A stretch of 20,000 nucleotides of DNA from Chiloscyllium plagiosum (lineage: Eukaryota). Below are positions 4,346 to 20,000 of the stretch, piece after piece; the stretch's first letter is position 1, and each line of letters opens with the position of its first letter. Both the position numbers and the translations under genes were made by a program. The notes beneath the pieces were generated by a model, which saw nothing but the letters and a program-made list of their open reading frames with translations, made no database searches and was not told where the DNA came from. The stretch is taken from positions 3,404,475 through 3,424,474 of the forward strand of contig NC_057751.1 in NCBI RefSeq assembly GCF_004010195.1, in the 5' to 3' direction.

Positions 4346-4451
4346 ATGGGTCTGGGTGGGTTACTCTTCGGAGGGTCGGTGTGGACTTGTTGGGCCAAAG
4401 GGCCTGTTTCCACACTGTCGGGAATCTAATTTAATATAGGTAATCTAATCT
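4346..4451 (+). mobile_element. 3' end of HE1-type SINE (or partner CR1) with (ATCTA)n-like tail
   Basis: Closely matches the SINE 3' end at 15677-15760; ends ...gaatctaatttaatataggtaatctaatct. Confidence 0.8.
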
Positions 4452-4521
4452 ACCAATAAAAGCTAACACACTGTATGCCTTCTTAACAACTTTATCCACC
4501 TGGGTGGCAACTTTCAGGGTT

Positions 4522-5262
4522 CTATGTACATGGACACCGAGATCTTTGCTCTTCTACACTTCCAAGAATCTTACCACTAGCCCAGTACTCTAAATTCCTG
4601 TTGTTCCTTCCAATGTGAAATACTTCACATTTTTCCACATTAAACTCCATTTGCCACCTTTCCGCCCAGCTCTGCAGTTTATCTATGTCCCTCTGTAACC
4701 TGCAACATCCTTCAGCACCATCCACAACTCCACCGACTTCAGTGTCATCTGGAAATTTACTAACCCATCCTTCGACGCCCTCATCCAGGTCATTTATAAA
4801 AATGACAAACAGCAATAAATCCAAAACAGATCCTTGCGGTACACCACTATTAACTGAACTCCAGAATAAATATTTCCCATCAAACACCACCCTCTGTCTT
4901 CTTTCAGTGAGCCAATTTCTGATCCAAACCGCAAGATCACCCTCAATCCGGTGCCTCTGTATTTTCTGCAATAGCCTTCCGTGAGGAACCGGATCAAATG
5001 CCTTACTGAAATACATATACATCGCATCAACCGCTTTACTGTCATCCACCCGTTTGGTCACCTTCTCAAAGAGCTCAATAAGGTTTGTGAGGCACGACCT
5101 ACCCTTCGCAAAATCGTGTTGACTATCCCTAATCAACTTATTCCTTGAGGAATGATTATAAATCCTATCTCTTCTAATCCTTTCCAAAACTTTGCCCACA
5201 ACCGAAGTGAGGTTCACTGGTTTATAATTACTCGGGTTGTTGCTACTCGCCTTCTTGAACAA
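4522..5262 (-). pseudogene. Reverse transcriptase domain remnant of the CR1 ORF2 (246-aa open stretch)
   Basis: Recognisable non-LTR RT motifs; the catalytic box reads FPDD instead of FADD and DFSKAFD reads YFSKAFD; frame broken on both sides. Confidence 0.9.
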
Positions 5263-5611
5263 AGGGACAACATTTGCTATTCTTAGTCTTCCGGCATTAT
5301 TCCTGTAGACAATGACAATATCGAGATCAAAACCAAAGGCTCTGCAATCTCCTCCCTGGTTTCCCAGAGAATCCTAGGATAAATCCCATCCAGTCTAAGG
5401 GGACTTATCTGTTTCATACTTTCCAGAATTGCTAACACCTCTTCATTGTGAACGTCAATCCCATCAATGACCTGTATCTCAGTATTCTCCTTGACAACGT
5501 TGTCTTTTTTCTGTGTGAATACTGATGAACAATATTCATTTAGCGCCTCTCCTATCTCCTTGGACTCCAAGCACAACTTCCCACTACTATCTATGACTGG
5601 CCCTAATCTTA

Positions 5612-6127
5612 GATTCGAGAGTGTGGTGCTGCAAAAGCATAGCAGGTCAGGCAGTATCTGAGGAGCAGGAGAATAGACATTTCAGGCAAAAGCCCTTCAT
5701 CAGGAATGAAGCTGGAAGCTGAGGGGGTGGAGAGATTTGGGGGTGGGGGTTGGTGGGGCTGGGGGGAAGGTAGGTGAGAGTGCGAGAGGTAGATGGAGAT
5801 GGGGGTAATGATGATAGGTCGGAGGGAGAGTGGAACAGATGGGTGGGAAGGAATATCGGCAGGTCATGAGGGCGGTGCTGAGCTGGAACTGGGGGGATGG
5901 GAAATGAGGAAACTGGTGAAATCCACTTTGATGCCATGGGGTTGGAGGGTCCCAAGGCAGAACGTGAGGCTTTCTTCCTCCTGGCGTCGGGTGGACAGGG
6001 CATGATGATGGAGACGGCATGTCCTTGGCAGAGTGGGAGGGGGAGTTGAAGTTTTCGGCTACAGGTCAGTGCGGTTGGTTGGTGTGGGTGTCCCAGAAAT
6101 ATTCTCTGAAGCGTTTTGCAAGGAGGA
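5612..6127 (-). mobile_element. Penelope-like element 3' fragment (end of GIY-YIG endonuclease region + pLTR), with 10-bp TSD
   Basis: CCTAATCTTA at 5602-5611 and 6128-6137. Minus-strand translation LLAKRFREY...PVAENFNSP/HSAKDM...RRQEEESLTFCLGTLQPHGIKVDFTSFLIS resembles the PLE GIY-YIG C-terminus. Decayed hammerhead at 5672-5707. Confidence 0.85.
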
Positions 6128-7215
6128 CCTAATCTTACCCTTCTTTTATTCCTGACATACCTGTAGAAATATTTGGGGTTTTCCTTGATCCTACTTGCCA
6201 AAGATTTCTCCTGTCCCCTCCTGGCTTTTCTTAGCTCTCTCTTTAGGTTCTCCCTCACTAACCTGTAACTTCCAAGTGCCCTAACTGAGCCTTCACATCT
6301 CATCTTTACAAAAGCCTCCTCGTTCTTCTTGATGAGATTCAACTTCTTCCCTCACTCGACCACTTCCTCCCTGCCTGACGGGTGCATACTTATCAAGGAC
6401 ATGCAGTAGCTGTTCCTTGAATAAGCTCCACATTTCAATTGTGTCCATCCCCTGCAGTTTCCTTCCCATCCTTTGCATCTGAAATCTTGCCTAATTGCTT
6501 CATAATTGCCTTTCCCCCAGCTTTTACTCTTGCCCTATGTTACATACTTGTCCTTTTCCATCGCTAAAGGAAACATAACCGAATTGTGGTCATTATCACC
6601 AAAGTGCTCACCTACCTCCACTTCTAACACCTGGCTGGGTTCATGACCCAATACCAAACCCAATGTGGCCTCGCCCCTTGTTGGCCTGTCCACATACTGT
6701 GTCAGGAAACACATGGGACAAAAACTGACCCATCTAAAGTACTTGAACTATAGCGATTCCAGTCAATATTTGGAAAGTCAAAGTACCCCATAACAACTCC
6801 CCTGTTAGTTTCGCCACTATCCAAAATCATCTTTGCTATCCTTTCCTCTTTATCTCTGGTACTATTCTGAGATCTGTAGAAAACTCCCAACAGGGTGACC
6901 TCTCCTTGGCTGATTCTAACCTCAGCCTATACAACCCCAGGAGACGAATCCTCAAACGTCCTCTTTGCCACTATACTGTCCTTGATTAACAATGCTTCAC
7001 CTCCCCCTGTTTTACCATCTTCTGAAACATCTAAATCCTGGAACCTGCAACAACTGTTCCAGTCACTGTTCTATCCATGTCTCCAAAATGGCCACAACAT
7101 CAAAGTCTCAGGTACCAATCTATGCTGCAAGTTCACCCACTTCACTCCAGATGCTCTTGGTTTTGAAGTAGACACACTTCAAACCCCCTTTCTGCTGAGC
7201 GGAACACTCCTGTGA

Positions 7216-7697
7216 TCTTAGAGTTATAAGAGATGTACAGCATGGAAACAGATCCTTCGGTCCAACCTGTCCATGCCGACCAGATATCCCAACCCAAGCT
7301 CGTCCCACTTGCCAGCACCCGGCCCATATCCCTCCAAACCCGTCCTATTCATATACCCATCCAAATGCCTCTTAAATGTTGCAATTGTACCAGCCTCCAC
7401 CACATCCTCTGGCAGCGCATTCCATACATGTACCACCCTCTGCGTGAAAACGTTGCCCCTTAGGTGTCTTTTATATCATTCCCCTCTCACCCTAAACCTA
7501 TGCCCTCTAGTTCTGGACTCCCCGATCCCAGGGAAAAGACTTTGCCTATTTATCCTATCCATGTCCCTCATAATTTTGTAAACCTCAATAAGGTCACCCC
7601 TCAGCCTCTGACGCTCCAGGGAAAACAGCCCCAGCCTGTTCAGCCTCTCTCTATAGCTCAAATCCTCCAACCCTGGCAACATCCTTGTAAATCTTTC
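7216..7697 (-). mobile_element. CR1 LINE 3' end (ORF2 C-terminus and 3' UTR), 5'-truncated
   Basis: MLPGLEDLSYRERLNRLGLFSLERQRLRGDLIEVYKIM...TRGHRFRV and VHVWNALPEDVVEAGTIATFKRHLDGYM are typical CR1 C-terminal motifs. Confidence 0.93.
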
Positions 7698-8767
7698 AAC
7701 TGCTCAGATTCTCACGGTCTCCCAAACATAGCTTTGGCAGAGGTGTAGAAGCATATTGTACAAATGTTCACCTCTCACATCTGGTTGACTCAATGGTGAA
7801 TGGCTCAGTGAAATGGAAGAAAGGAAGTTTGCTTTAACAGACTAAACAGTCAATTTAGGTTGAATAAATATGAAAGGGCAGGATTGTAAGCCTGCTCATT
7901 CATTGACCTTGATTTACAGTGTTGTTTGCACTGGTTGTGGCTGGACATCTTCAACAGTAAGAACACCCGCTACATCAAGCACCAATCAGACACTAAAGAT
8001 CTGACCAGAAGCTTTGTCAACTTATCAAGTGCCTTGTCAGTGAAGTCCCTCCTCACGTGAAGCTGCAAGTCAATAAAAAAAGGCAGCCACTGGGAGTTGG
8101 ACTGAATTGAAAGAAGCCCAGGCTGCGCAGCTGTTCGCACTTACACCAGTGAGTAAAATCTGCGAGTGTTTGGAGGAATCGTGGGGTGGCGGTTGTGAGG
8201 AGAGAGGTGTCGGTGGGTTGGAAGCTGAGCTCCTTGGTCCCTTATCTGTGACCTATAATTGCCCCCACTGTTTGCTGTTAGCACAGAATCCACTTTTTTC
8301 ACCTACAGGGGAAGGAAGGTAATTGGAGCAGTTGTGGGTTGAGGCTCTTAAGTTGTCATGAATTGACTACATAACAGATTCAAAAACTGCTGAAACAAGA
8401 TATATTTATCAAAGCTTAATTTCAGAAAAACCTGCAGTTAACTGTCAGTCATTATTAACTTGTACTTTGCTGAATGTTTTGACATGAACAATCAGAATCC
8501 ACTTAACGACCAATCAGCCCTTTCCTCTTGACTGGTACAAATGTTTTTTTACCGTTCAATTGATAAAATGTTCATTCTGGATCGCTACAAAAGGCAATTA
8601 ATTAATGCTACTCCCCTGCAATTTTCTCATCGATCTGCAATCTTTTCTCTTTTCAAGTACTTATCCAATGATCTTGAAACCATATTCTTGACTTCACTCC
8701 TCTCAACGTCCGCTACACTGGAGATACAATTCAGGTTCCCATCTCCCTGCTCAACGAGCAAATCTCT

Positions 8768-9712: not shown

Positions 9713-9823
9713 ATGGATATGGGCCAGGTGCTGGCAGGTAGGACTAGATTGGGTTGGGATATCTGGTCAGCATGGACGGGTTGGACCGAAGGATCTGTTT
9801 CCTCGCTGTACATCTCTATGACA
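9713..9823 (+). mobile_element. Short CR1 3' UTR fragment
   Basis: Reverse-complement match to about 7228-7332 (ggatatgggccaggtgctggcagg...ttggaccgaaggatctgtttcc...gctgtacatctct). Confidence 0.88.
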
Positions 9824-9899
9824 CCTGAGAGGGAAAATAGAGTTGAAACTTTATTGCTGGAACAGCACAGCAGGTCAGGCAGCATCCAGGGAACAGGAG

Positions 9900-9935
9900 A
9901 TTCGACGTTTCGGGCACAGGCCCTTCTTCAGGAAT
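9900..9935 (-). ncRNA. Minimal type I hammerhead ribozyme motif (mirror copy)
   Basis: Exact reverse complement of 10292-10327. Confidence 0.8.
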
Positions 9936-10291
9936 GAGCAGAGAGTGTTCAGCAGGAGAAGATAAAAGGTAGGGAGGAGGGACTTGGAGGAGGGGAGTTG
10001 GAAATGTGATAGGTGGAAAGAGGTCAAGGTGAGGGTGATAGGTCGGAGTAGGGTGGAGGCGGAGAGGTCAAGAAGAAGACTGCAGGTCAGGAAGGCCTTC
10101 CTTGAAGAAGCTCTCTGCCTCTCTCTAACCGCCTTCCTGACCTGCAGTCTTCTTCTTGACCTCTCCGCCTCCACCCTACTCCGACCTATCACCCTCACCT
10201 TGACCTCTTTCCACCTATCACATTTCCAACTCCCCTCCTCCAAGTCCCTCCTCCCTACCTTTTATCTTCTCCTGCTGAACACTCTCTGCTC

Positions 10292-10327
10292 ATTCCTGAA
10301 GAAGGGCCTGTGCCCGAAACGTCGAAT
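10292..10327 (+). ncRNA. Minimal type I hammerhead ribozyme motif in PLE pLTR
   Basis: ATTC (stem I) CTGAAGA (core) A GGGC-ctgt-GCCC (stem II) GAAA C GTC (predicted cleavage after 10323) GAAT (stem I partner). Stem III is reduced to self-complementary ACGT. Confidence 0.8.
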
Positions 10328-10739
10328 CTCCTGTTCCCTGGATGCTGCCTGACCTGCTGTGCTGTTCCAGCAATAAAGTTTCAACTTTGATCTCCAGCAT
10401 CTGCAGACCTCACTTTCTCCAGGGAAAATAGAGCCCCAGTCTAATGTTTCACGTAAACTGACATTTGCAACAGTGCGGCACGCCCTTCCACCAAGCTCTA
10501 GCTATCCTGCACCAGCTGTTGATGAATTGATCCCAGGCATCATCTGAGAGCTGCCCTCGGACTTTCCCTCTGCATACTGTCTGCTGAGGGTGGAGTTTAA
10601 GTCTGTGTGCTCTCACTCTGAGTGCAGTGTGTGTCTGAGTGATTCATGGTGCTGCCTACTCAGTGATAAGCCTGGTTTGACATTTACATGTTCCTGATGT
10701 TAATTGGTGGACAAGCTTCCCACTTCCTGGGCCCTCAAT

Positions 10740-10922: not shown

Positions 10923-13017
10923 GAACTACAGGCACCGTCTTGGCAGTCTGTGTCCCACTGGCTATGTCTGTACATCAGTAAGTGAGGGTTTCCACTGTGC
11001 TCCAAGTCTGCATTTATTTAGGATTGATGAGTAGTACATTCTTTATGAGCCTGCCCTGGAGTGTTCATTTCATTCAGCGAAGGGAAACAAAATGAGACAG
11101 TCATCACATGTTGGCTGCTGTCCAATGTATTTCATCATTGCTCTTTTACTTTATATTCCACCTCCAGTCCAAGAGCTGTGACAGAGTTACCTCCGGTCCT
11201 CCCTCACTTCGGTTTCAATGGTTTCTCCAGAAGTGAGTCACATTTAATCTTTACAAAGTGGATTGATATTTGAAAATTAAACAAGAATATAAAGTCAAAA
11301 CCAAAAAAAAACAAACTGACATCATGCTTCTTCATGAAATAAACCTTGGGCTTAAAGGCCAATGGGTAAGTTCCTTTCAGGGAACTTCTGTGAGGAAACT
11401 TTGCCCATGTGTAGGTGCTCCTGAAGAGGACACAGTCAGCGAAAGCAATCCAAAATCAGAGATCAGAATCCACATCAGGCAGCTGGGGGAATTCATTGAA
11501 TTTCAGAGAAGGAGCAGTCTTCTCCATGCTGTCAGTAAATCATTTCTTTGGGATGGATGCCCAGTGACAGGGCTTGCCTGATGAATTATCCTCAGTTAGT
11601 GGAAACAGATTGCCCCCGGAAGTGGTCTGGGCGCAATTCCAGACATTTGCTGTCCTTCCAGCTTTCAGCTGCCCGACACCTTCATGTTGACCTAACAATA
11701 CGGGTCTCAAATTGTTTCACAAAGCAGAATTAAGGAGTGCAATTTGCTCATACCACTTTGGCTGTATTGCTCAATGGTTTCTTGGAATTTTTCTATGATT
11801 TCACACAAAATAGGTTTGTGTTTAGCAACTGATGATTTGAGCAAAGCCACGCAAGTGGAGTAGGTAAAGCTGTTTGTACTTGTTCCTCTGAGATTTTGCC
11901 AAGAATGAATATGTATCAACATTTCTGGTCAATACAGCATTGATTTACTGCTCTTCTTGCACCCTGTTTGAGGGTTGAAATGGGAATGTAGTTCAATTTC
12001 TGATCCTGCAGTTTTGACACTGGTGAGGTAAAAGAGAAAGAGAATGGGTTATCTGATCAGTTTTCAGTTGCTTTGCCATCATGTTTGTTCCACGTGGTAA
12101 GAGATTGGATCCTTTCATCCAATTACCCCATGACTGCTGGGTCTCGACTTGTAATCGGAACTGAGCCAGGTGTAACCAGGCCCTGGTCAGAAGTTTGGTT
12201 CAAAGACTAATCCATCAATTGTGCTCCCTACCCCACTTGAGGGATGGGGAATGTTTTCTGTCTCTGTCTGGCTCTCACTCTGGCTGTTACTTTCCCTGTC
12301 TTTCTTAGTCATCCAGCCACCTGAGCGAACAGTCAACCCCTTTATGGAACACACCATTCCTGGCCAAACAACCCAACTACTTTGCAAATGTGTTCAGGGA
12401 AAGAAATGTTTGCTATTGGTGCAGTGTGGTTGATATGTGACTCCAGACTCTCAGCAGTGTGATTGGCTGTCACCTGCCTGCTGAAATGACCCTGCACCTC
12501 TCTTATTTGAAGCAACTGTATAATTGTATACAGTAATCACAAAGACTTCAGTAGTTCAAGAGGGGATTTCACCGCCGCCTTTGCAAGGATGTCTGAATTC
12601 ATTTTGAAATGGAGGTTGCTCCTTCTGAGAAGCTGACATCCGTGTTCAGGCAACTGCTCGTCAAACTTACCTCTGCACTAAATTCTTCCCTTGTCATTGT
12701 GTGAATTCATTCCAAAGGTTGTGTAATTTTACAACGGCAGTAGTTTGAATGACCAGGGGTAGGCTGGAATGTGATGGAAACATGAAAATAAAAAATATGA
12801 AAGTGGAATTATTGAGTTTTAAATTGCTGATTTCATAACCACAAACAGGTAGGAATTAGTCCTGGCTAATACTATAGACCAGTGTGGAATATATGTCGGT
12901 TATAAGGATCACCTGAGTGGGAAAACAGAGTAAACTGTTCCTTCCACTGCAATGTTTTGTCTGTTACAGATATTTGTCAAGTATCTGCAACAAATTTTTT
13001 TTCTTCCTTTATGAGAT

Positions 13018-13914
13018 GGAAGAGGGAGTCGAAGGGTGGGTCAGTAAATTTGCAGACGATACGAAGATTGGTGGAGTTGTGGATAGTGAGGAGGGCTGTT
13101 GTCGGCTGCAAAGGGACTTAGATATGATGCAGAGCTGGGCTGAGGAGTGGCAGATGGAGTTGAACCCTGTCAAGTGTGAGGTTGTCCATTTTGGAAGGAC
13201 AAATGAGAATGCGGAATACAGGGTTAACGGTACGGTTCTTAGTAAGGTGGAGGAGCAGAGGGATCTTGGGGTCTATGTTCATAGATCTTTGAAAGTTGCC
13301 ACTCAGGTGGATAGAGCTTGTAAGAAGGCCTATGGTGTATTAGCGTTCATTAGCAGAGGGATTGAATTCAAGAGTCGTGAGGTGATGTTGCAGCTGTACA
13401 GGACCTTGGTAAGGCCACATTTGGAGTACTGTGTGCAGTTCTGGTCGCCTCATTTTAGGAAAGATGTGGAAGCTTTGGAGAGGGTGCAGAGGAGGTTTAC
13501 AGGATGTTGCCTGGAATGGAGAATAGGTCGTACAAGGATAGGTTGAGAGTGCAAGGCCTTTTCTCATCGGAACGGCCAAGGATGAGGGGTGACTTGATGG
13601 AGGTTTATAAGATGATCAGGGGAATAGATAGAGTAGACAGTCAGAGACTTTTTCCCCGGGTACAACAGAGTGTTACAAGGGGACATAAATTTAAGGTGAA
13701 GGGTGGAAGGTATAGGGGGGATGTCAGGGGTAGGTTCTTTACCCAGAGAGTGGTGGGGGCATGGAATGCGCTGCCTGTGGGAGTGGCAGAGTCAGAATCA
13801 TTGGTGACCTTTAAGCGGCAATTGGATAGGTACATGGATAAGCTCGGACAAATGTTCGGCACAACATCGTGGGCCGAAGAGCCTGTTCTGTGCTGTATTG
13901 TTCTATGTTCTATG
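13018..13914 (+). mobile_element. CR1 LINE 3' portion (RT C-terminal half to tail), 5'-truncated, relatively young
   Basis: EEGVEGWVSKFADDTKIGG...RPHLEYCVQFWSPH...LERVQRRFT; one frameshift near 13500; RFFTQRVVGAWNALP; (TTCTATG)2 tail; TATGAGAT at 13010-13017 and 13911-13918. Confidence 0.95.
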
Positions 13915-14092
13915 AGATAGGGGTGTTACTGGCTGGCCAGTATTTGTAACTTTTGCCCAGTTAGCCTTGACAAGGTGGTGGTGAGCTGCCTTCCCGAACC
14001 ACTGCAGTCCATGTGCTGCAAGTTAAACCACAGTGTCATTCGGGGGTGGAAGATCTAGTGACACTGAAGGAATGATGATTTCTTTTCAAGTC
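13915..14092 (-). mobile_element. Old LINE 3' end remnant (CR1/L2 group), host of the CR1 insertion at 13018
   Basis: ccttgacaaggtggtggtgagctgccttcccgaaccactgcag is the reverse complement of a weaker copy near 12547-12590, showing it is repetitive; family assignment from memory. Confidence 0.45.
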
Positions 14093-15438: not shown

Positions 15439-15768
15439 GGGGCGGCACCGTGGCTCAGTGGTTAGCACTGCTGCCTCATAGTGCTAGCGTCCCGGGTTCG
15501 ATTCCTGCCTCGGGCGACTGTCCGTGTGGAGTTTACATGCTCTCCCCGTGTCTGCGTGGGTTTCCTCTGGGTGCTCCAGTTTCCTTCCACAGTCCAAAGA
15601 TGTGCAGGTTAGGTGGATTGGCCATGCTAAATTACCCATAGTGTTAGGTGCATTCATCAGGGCTAAATGTAGGGGAATGGGTCTGGGTGGGTTACTCTTA
15701 AGCAGGTTGGTGTGGACTTGTTGGGCTGAGGGGTCTGTTTCCATACTGTCGCGAATCTAAAAAAAAAA
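15439..15768 (+). mobile_element. Full-length tRNA-derived SINE, HE1-like (V-SINE superfamily)
   Basis: A box TGGCTCAGTGG (15451-15461), B box GGTTCGATTCC (15495-15505), central V-domain-like gtgtggagttt...tctccccgtgtctgcgtgggtttcctc, CR1-like 3' end, A tail. Confidence 0.92.
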
Positions 15769-18311: not shown

Positions 18312-18705
18312 CGGGATGTTTTTTCACTGCAGCGCAGGATATTGAGTGGTGACCTTACAGAGGTGTACAGATAAGGTGAATGACAGGTGTCTTTTCCCTA
18401 CGACGGGGGATTTCAAGACTTGGAGGAGGATACTTTAAAGGTGAGAGCAAAAAGCTTTAAACGAGACATAAGGGGCAACTTTTTTTACACAGCGAGTGAT
18501 TCATGTGTGGAATGAACTTCCAAAGTAAGTGTTGGATGTGGGGACAGTTAGAGCAATTAAAAGACATTTGGATAAGCACATGAATACGCAAGGTTTAGAG
18601 GGATATGGGCCAGGAGCAGGCAGGTGGGACTAGTTTACTTTGGGATTTTGGTCAGCATGGACTGGTTGGGCCAAAGGGTCTGCTTCTGTGCTCTTTAACT
18701 CTGAG
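18312..18705 (+). mobile_element. CR1 LINE 3' end, degenerate
   Basis: ggtgaccttacagaggtgtac, aggggcaacttttttacacag, gtgtggaatgaacttcc, aaaagacatttggat and gagggatatgggccagg match 7216-7697 in reverse complement. Confidence 0.88.
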
Positions 18706-19616: not shown

Positions 19617-20000
19617 GGAGAAAGTGAGGACTGCAGATGCTGGAGATCAGAGCTGAAAATGTGTTGCTGGAAAAGCGCAACAGGTCAGGCAGCATCCAAG
19701 GAACAGGAGAATCGACGTTTCGGGCATAAGCCCTTCTTCAGGAATGAGGAAAGTGTGTCCAGCAGGCTAAGATGAAAGGTAGGGAGGAGGGACTTGGGGA
19801 GGGGCATTGGAAATGCGATAGGTGGAAGGAAGTCAAGGTGAGGGTGATTGGCCGAAGTGGGGTGGGGGCGGAGAGGTCAGGAAGAAGATTGCAGGTTAGG
19901 AAGGTGGTGCTGAGTTCGAGGGATTTGACTGAGACAAGGTGGGGGGAGGGGAAATGAGGAAACTAGTGAAATCCGAGTTCATCCCTTGTGGTTGGAGGGT
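19617..20000 (-). mobile_element. Penelope-like element 3' end (pLTR with tail; continues beyond the window into the endonuclease ORF)
   Basis: Highly similar to the reverse complement of 10131-10420 including the tail; 19950-20000 translates on minus to TLQPQGMNSDFTSFLIS. Confidence 0.88.
19710..19745 (-). ncRNA. Minimal type I hammerhead ribozyme motif, core intact
   Basis: Minus strand: ATTC-CTGAAGA-A-GGGC-ttat-GCCC-GAAA-CGTC-GATT. Confidence 0.75.

Follow-up and report, generated by a model that had tools for sequence, protein, structure and literature searches.

What might a hammerhead ribozyme do if it cannot close its own third stem? The question is raised by 36 nucleotides (10292-10327, plus strand) within the window, the 20,000-nt stretch of contig NC_057751.1 of Chiloscyllium plagiosum that was analysed. 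The in vivo role of the hammerheads of Penelope-like elements (PLEs) is still called unclear in the accessible part of PMC8557442. Stem I pairs 10292-10295 with 10324-10327 (4 bp) and leads into CUGAAGA (10296-10302) and an extra A at 10303; stem II (10304-10307 with 10312-10315) has 4 bp and a 4-nt loop, and is followed by GAAA (10316-10319) and CGUC (10320-10323), with cleavage predicted after C10323. A minimal hammerhead is what these letters spell: the CUGANGA + GAAA + NUH core, stems I and II, an unpaired A10303 between positions 9 and 10.1, and G10304-C10315 as the G10.1-C11.1 pair. Stem III is reduced to the palindrome ACGU (15.2-16.2) at 10319-10322, with no loop 3. Since only two bases, CG, lie between A15.1 and U16.1, a monomer cannot close this stem, as the original prediction had held; its description of the core, stems I and II, the extra A and the ACGU stem III also agrees with a re-reading of the sequence. 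It had further likened the extra A to that of a viroid hammerhead. The A is present, but the analogy is unnecessary, as an extra nucleotide is standard in PLE minimal hammerheads according to the available text of Cervera and De la Pena 2014 (PMC4209133). Could such a motif arise by chance? A descriptor made of the core, 4-bp stems I and II and paired 15.2/16.2 matched twice in the window and in none of 1,500 order-1 Markov windows of matched composition. A mirror hammerhead, intact, occupies 9900-9935 (minus strand), its reverse complement being identical to 10292-10327. A search with hammerhead models had been proposed as a check, and an Rfam scan of the window gave no hammerhead match at E<=5. 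The scan otherwise returned only hairpin-type miRNA models, all under their gathering scores, because the 256-bp inverted repeat described below forms a hairpin.

How did the motif get there? It belongs to a 578-bp insertion (9843-10420), a head-to-head stub flanked by 13-bp target-site duplications (9830-9842 on the left, 10421-10433 on the right). The right arm (10128-10420, plus strand) is the 5'-truncated 3' end (pLTR) of a young Penelope-like element with 99-100% identical copies on many contigs; the left arm (9841-10096, minus strand) is an inverted copy of 10131-10386, 100% identical over 256 nt, and lacks the 34-nt tail that comparison of copies reveals on the right arm only (10387-10420, plus strand). 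Tails of 30-40 bp are described in the available parts of PMC8557442 and PMC11167929, and the insertion thus combines the inverted pLTR, the one-ended 30-40 bp tail and the target-site duplication by which PLEs are recognised. At the head-to-head joint lie 33 nt from the beginning of the element's ORF (10095-10127, plus strand), captured via a GCCTTCC microhomology; they correspond to +40 to +72 past the pLTR end, with the ATG at +38, and are present in the natural copy L225. The right arm also carries AATAAA (10372-10377, plus strand), which occurs in the young subfamily only and is absent in older ones. Some RNA reads (run X21) carry poly(A) shortly past 10383-10386, and given these reads and the young-subfamily AATAAA, host transcripts may use copies of the element as polyadenylation signals.

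Can the ribozyme act at this locus? The plus strand of the window has no family core besides this motif, and hence no same-sense partner for it. The mirror copy had been set aside from the outset as antisense and no possible partner, and rightly so: in the minimum-energy fold of the inverted repeat, the mirror arm pairs with the whole motif, which is predicted to be buried in a 256-bp duplex in read-through RNA. Nor is this a non-LTR retrozyme, which has at least two same-sense tandem units with hammerheads, whereas the window copy is an inverted, head-to-head pair. We regard it as a dead-on-arrival stub whose ribozyme is unlikely to act at its own locus. The surroundings are rich in older repeats. 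Other, older copies of the same element lie at 3-55, 5604-6140 and 19617-20000 (minus strand); at 19694-19746 the core is complete and stem I has a U-U mismatch, and near 5700-6065 there is a decayed GIY-YIG-like frame with no Pfam match. Decayed RT-bearing LINE fragments, presumably CR1/L2-like, and SINE-like repeats are found at 4346-5373, 7229-7750, 12917-13920, 15488-15760 and 18320-18700, and the insertion itself sits shortly after the 3' end of one LINE/SINE-like repeat (9715-9817).

In the 3.56 Gb of genome searched, the 35-mer 10293-10327 has 10,133 exact copies and a downstream 25-mer anchor has 19,180, each with a reversed control of 0. The 290 nt around the motif find 99-100% matches on many contigs, and the 30 best loci of that search all share the 3' end equivalent to 10420. 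Longer copies extend upstream into GIY-YIG (PF01541) and RT (PF00078) domains, both above Pfam cut-offs, which bears out the initial assignment to a minimal type I hammerhead of a PLE pLTR. Their order was pieced together from one locus running from the RT into the linker (L153) and two running from the linker into GIY-YIG (L013, L022), no single intact RT + GIY-YIG copy being present among the loci inspected. The linker CNRRRCNTC of all three fits the CX2-5CxxC motif between RT and endonuclease that the accessible text of PMC8557442 names as that of Neptune, and to judge by this motif the element is a young Penelope-like element of Neptune type. Where copies continue past 10420 the ORF begins 38 nt later, so the ribozyme belongs both to the 3' end of an upstream copy and to the 5' leader of the copy that follows. 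No intact source with two pLTRs appeared within 1.5 kb either side of 30 of the 182 pLTR-ORF junction loci, 30 of the 51 ORF-start loci and 30 RT/linker loci. In L203 and L223 a C-rich minisatellite (PPPRSVTTPNPA repeats) lies in the 5' part of the ORF; long copies stop there, and this may explain the absence of full-length copies among those seen.

If a monomer cannot cut, what could? Two 36-mers can be drawn as a double hammerhead whose stems I both form between the molecules, as does a 4-bp ACGU helix. At a predicted -13.1 kcal/mol this fold does not outcompete two monomers (-14.2) or a misfolded duplex (-18.3), as would be expected if the motif needs help, and the pairing probability of stem I in longer contexts is only 0.01-0.16. 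A second substrate half-site (CGUH-GAAU), with which stem III might close in cis, was found nowhere outside the motif in the four natural ORF pieces scanned. The available text of PMC4209133 reports that single minimal hammerheads of Schistosoma mansoni did not cleave, while dimers and trimers cleaved weakly. Work of Frangieh et al. 2024 (PMC11167929) on PAc, a Poseidon element of Anolis carolinensis, adds in its accessible part that the PAc ribozyme cleaved only with protein present and that cleavage was dispensable for insertion in vitro. By analogy with these papers, dimer cleavage of the present motif is plausible. Are same-sense partners available? A same-sense core lies within 700 nt for 4 of 60 sampled arms that have a core, three of the four at one locus. 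Same-sense tandems are spaced 224 nt apart in L168/L169 and L215 and 461-633 nt apart in L200, L215, L222 and L225; tandems make up only a small part of the family, which has 182 exact pLTR-ORF junctions but 19,180 anchors. The same 224-nt unit with an identical ORF-start-to-pLTR junction recurs in L031, L168/L169 and L215 (contigs C1 and C19) and partly in L188, and five pLTR-ORF junctions lie 194-224 nt apart on C8 near 24.158 Mb. This recurrent tandem may be a mobile retrozyme-like unit with same-sense hammerheads.

Does cleavage then shape the copies found in the genome? The ends of the first 100 arms at anchor sites on contig C1 were mapped, the sample taking in arms that start no later than 10361. 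Their 3' ends fall on two fixed points 34 nt apart, 10420 (57 arms) and 10386 (35 at 10385-10387), with 8 elsewhere. Their 5' ends lie before 10286 in 16 arms, at 10286-10297 in 52, at 10298-10319 in 19, at 10320-10328 in 5 and further downstream in 8, and none lies at 10324, the first base after the cut. Genome-wide, an identical two-letter flank test was applied to three positions that are all preceded by TC in the element, and it counts 1,642 junctions at 10292, 107 at 10324 and 183 at the control position 10329. There is hence no excess at the cut site either in the 100 arms or genome-wide, and most copies begin where stem I begins. This edge is fuzzy (10290-10298), and paired arms are not independent.

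The original prediction looked to cleavage of two same-sense copies, and in its fullest form this reading holds that the retrotransposed RNA owes its ends to cleavage of tandem-pLTR dimers. Same-sense tandems do occur in the family, dimer cleavage has been reported for other PLE hammerheads (PMC4209133, available text), and RNA re-ligated or circularised after cleavage would appear uncut in long copies. The junctions speak against it: they show no surplus at 10324, and the excess of G considered below is located at 10292. Tandems are also few, and in PAc the ribozyme mutants still insert and RNA-seq reads never began or ended at the cut site, as far as the accessible text of PMC11167929 goes. 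That cleavage makes the ends is therefore unlikely.

What, if not cleavage, sets the 5' end? The letter preceding A10292 was counted by hand in the first 100 of 634 rows, chosen so that base -1 was not the element's C and base -2 was C or T: G occurs 58 times, A 19 and T 23. Leaving out 34 rows with element-derived flank, G is still found in 33 of 66. Against a background of 0.248 the excess has p = 2e-12 (58/100) and p = 9e-6 (33/66). The surrounding TCATTCC (10290-10296, plus strand), singled out by the 5' junction peak and the G excess before A10292, is initiator-like, and we take it to resemble the initiator consensus YYANWYY. In L1 and SVA an untemplated 5' G is the accepted signature of a copied cap, according to the available text of PMC4859970. 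From these features of the sequence we infer that A10292 is the first base of the element RNA, preceded by a cap-like G, and since copies end at 10292 with an excess of G, the short ones likely derive from uncut, capped RNA starting at stem I. A spliced 5' exon before stem I, of the kind known from D. virilis, was considered and dropped, the flanks before 10292 having no sequence in common. No peak of starts or ends was seen at any position with the RNA reads of raw runs X21 and X22 (X22 had no reads placed) or with contig runs X6 and X1, and in the single run placed, 70-92% of reads continue into unlike sequence. A literature search, with one key paper and some supplements outside its scope, found no report of a cap or of PLE insertion ends at the ribozyme, and none describing an extra G at PLE 5' junctions.

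The same edge might instead be a stop or fold-back of the RT set by structure, or reflect self-priming on an antisense template, and not be an RNA start at all. Many junctions are palindromic or joined by microhomology; self-priming of this sort has been proposed for rotifer PLEs (PMC3846280, accessible part); a G at -1 could pair with C10328, lengthening stem I by one pair; and arm lengths, which are matched within pairs as described below, are also compatible with fold-back synthesis. At 10292, however, the RT would be leaving the structure and not entering it. The 5' edge is the same in solo copies without inversion, and some solo copies end at 10386. A longer fold-back would predict GGAG before A10292, which is not seen in the 12-nt flanks listed, and the G excess remains in rows with unrelated flanks. 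As the origin of the edge this explanation is quite unlikely, and fold-back or antisense self-priming explains part of the junction pattern.

How could two arms be made from an RNA that would begin at 10292? In 24 of 24 head-to-head pairs one arm is long-ended (10420) and the other short-ended (10385-10396), and arm lengths are matched within pairs (3 long/long, 21 short/short, 0 mixed). Duplications of at least 9 bp flank 32 of 55 insertions ending at 10420, against 0 of 55 controls. The origin of each inverted insertion from two independent RNAs is weakened by the matched lengths in all 24 pairs. Paired long and short ends together with matched lengths fit what the available text of PMC11167929 describes for PAc, where both target strands are nicked and extended, two internal RT starts define the tail, and uncut RNA is the main insertion substrate. 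Carrying this mechanism over is an analogy, as PAc is a Poseidon element and the linker here is of Neptune type; the PAc ORF moreover starts at stem II, while that position lacks an ATG in the young family, whose ORF begins 38 nt past the pLTR end.

The reading we prefer, and to which we would give a probability of roughly 70%, is that the minimal hammerhead is the 5' tip of a capped element RNA, that it cuts only as an RNA pair, probably aided by protein, and that the RNA is copied into the genome mostly uncut. Pol II would start at about A10292, so that the capped RNA begins with the first base of stem I. The element's protein would nick both target strands, and the RT, primed from them, would start inside the RNA at 10420 and 10386, at least 38 nt before the ATG of the ORF. 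Each cDNA would run through the uncut ribozyme to the 5' end of the RNA, giving stubs of 128 or 94 nt, which would be inserted singly, or head to head when both survive. The window copy is one of the less common long ones (16 of 100 arms); their template presumably continued upstream of the ribozyme as a tandem or read-through transcript or as re-ligated RNA, three sources that sequence alone cannot separate. Natural insertions from a different clade would lend support to in vitro work in which uncut RNA was the main insertion substrate. They form a large genomic read-out, with ends at the first base of the ribozyme and a cap-like G, not at the cut, and with two fixed RT starts, and they offer a single exact base, 10292, for cap mapping.

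What would the ribozyme be for in an RNA that is mostly copied uncut? As the first 36 nt of a capped RNA it could be a switch triggered by pairing, dimer cleavage decapping and silencing the RNA where it is crowded, or making a circle that lets the RT reach the ORF. Linear capped RNA would yield only stubs of 94-128 nt because the RT starts just downstream of the cap. We put this forward tentatively, as possible though not probable; if it is true, the ratio of stubs to long copies in the genome records how often the ribozyme fires. Variants at 10308 and 10330 are fully linked (20 versus 208 copies), a test for recombination across the cut site, a possible trace of circles, that had no source with unlike pLTRs to draw on.

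Alternatively, the motif may no longer cleave at all and be kept as a promoter, a protein-binding site or an RNA-pairing element. The predicted folding is weak, Naiad PLEs thrive without hammerheads (PMC8557442, available text), and the dispensability of cleavage for PAc in vitro points the same way. What does conservation say? In 223 young and 56 older copies from the fetched loci, with columns classed by eye and stem I omitted, none of the 23 columns of the core, extra A, stem II and stem III has an inherited change, while N7, loop II and the 3' flank have 14 such columns among 64 (p = 0.017). The extra A is invariant in 223/223 young and 56/56 older copies. Conservation had been proposed as a test among young copies; the core is indeed conserved across subfamilies, but the young copies alone give little power because they are nearly identical. 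Stem I is less constant: older subfamilies carry another base at 10326, which in the commonest of them leaves a U-U mismatch, and some older copies pair the stem through other letters. Invariant columns could also reflect constraint on a promoter or on protein binding. A motif that has ceased to cleave is nevertheless very unlikely, as all catalytic positions and stem II are fixed while N7 and loop II vary, and the core is also kept by unrelated hammerhead families at the same loci, which have other stems and the palindrome AGCU. The C3/G8 mutants of PAc, in turn, lose and then regain cleavage as expected of a ribozyme (PMC11167929, accessible text).

How new is all this? The motif itself is of a kind already published, its extra nucleotide, palindrome and opposite-strand twin all being in the literature. 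With the metazoan PLE minimal hammerheads of PMC4209133 it shares, as far as the available text describes them, the type I core, a stem I of 4-5 bp, the extra nucleotide between 9 and 10.1, G10.1-C11.1 and the palindromic 15.2-16.2, as well as an occurrence mostly as single copies in truncated elements and as opposite-strand pairs 100-700 bp apart; in the accessible part of the supplement, motifs from cichlids and lamprey likewise have CUGAAGA followed by one further nucleotide, and CGUC. It differs in that stem II has 4 bp here and 7-8 bp in S. mansoni, in that the family is very uniform, judging by its exact copies, and in that insertion ends and a probable cap are placed at the first base of the ribozyme here and not in the available text of that report. 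An inverted 5' copy 34-37 bp shorter, a palindromic joint, a target-site duplication and an Inr-like pLTR motif are shared with the PLE insertions of PMC3846280 and PMC8557442 (accessible parts), whereas only two pLTR pieces and 33 nt of ORF start are present here. The animal non-LTR retrozymes (bioRxiv 10.64898/2026.07.22.740005, available text) have short tandem units and type I hammerheads from PLE pLTRs, and the present family makes some tandems of 200-300 nt. With full-length insertions of L1 and SVA (PMC4859970, available part) the likeness lies in the extra G at the 5' junction, read there as a copied cap; these belong to another class of retroelement, and the capped end here would lie only 94-128 nt from the RT start.

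Two further hammerhead families were seen in the same genome. The second (L227-L256), with 4,412 exact matches of a 28-mer, has AGCU as its palindrome and CUA as its cut triplet; its copies also occur as inverted pairs and seem to have two 3' ends. Of 30 copies, 16 end at or near the 5' side of the ribozyme, as judged more loosely and by eye in a sample in which cut-site ends are undetectable. The third type, present in few copies, has a longer stem II (6-7 bp) and an ACGU palindrome.
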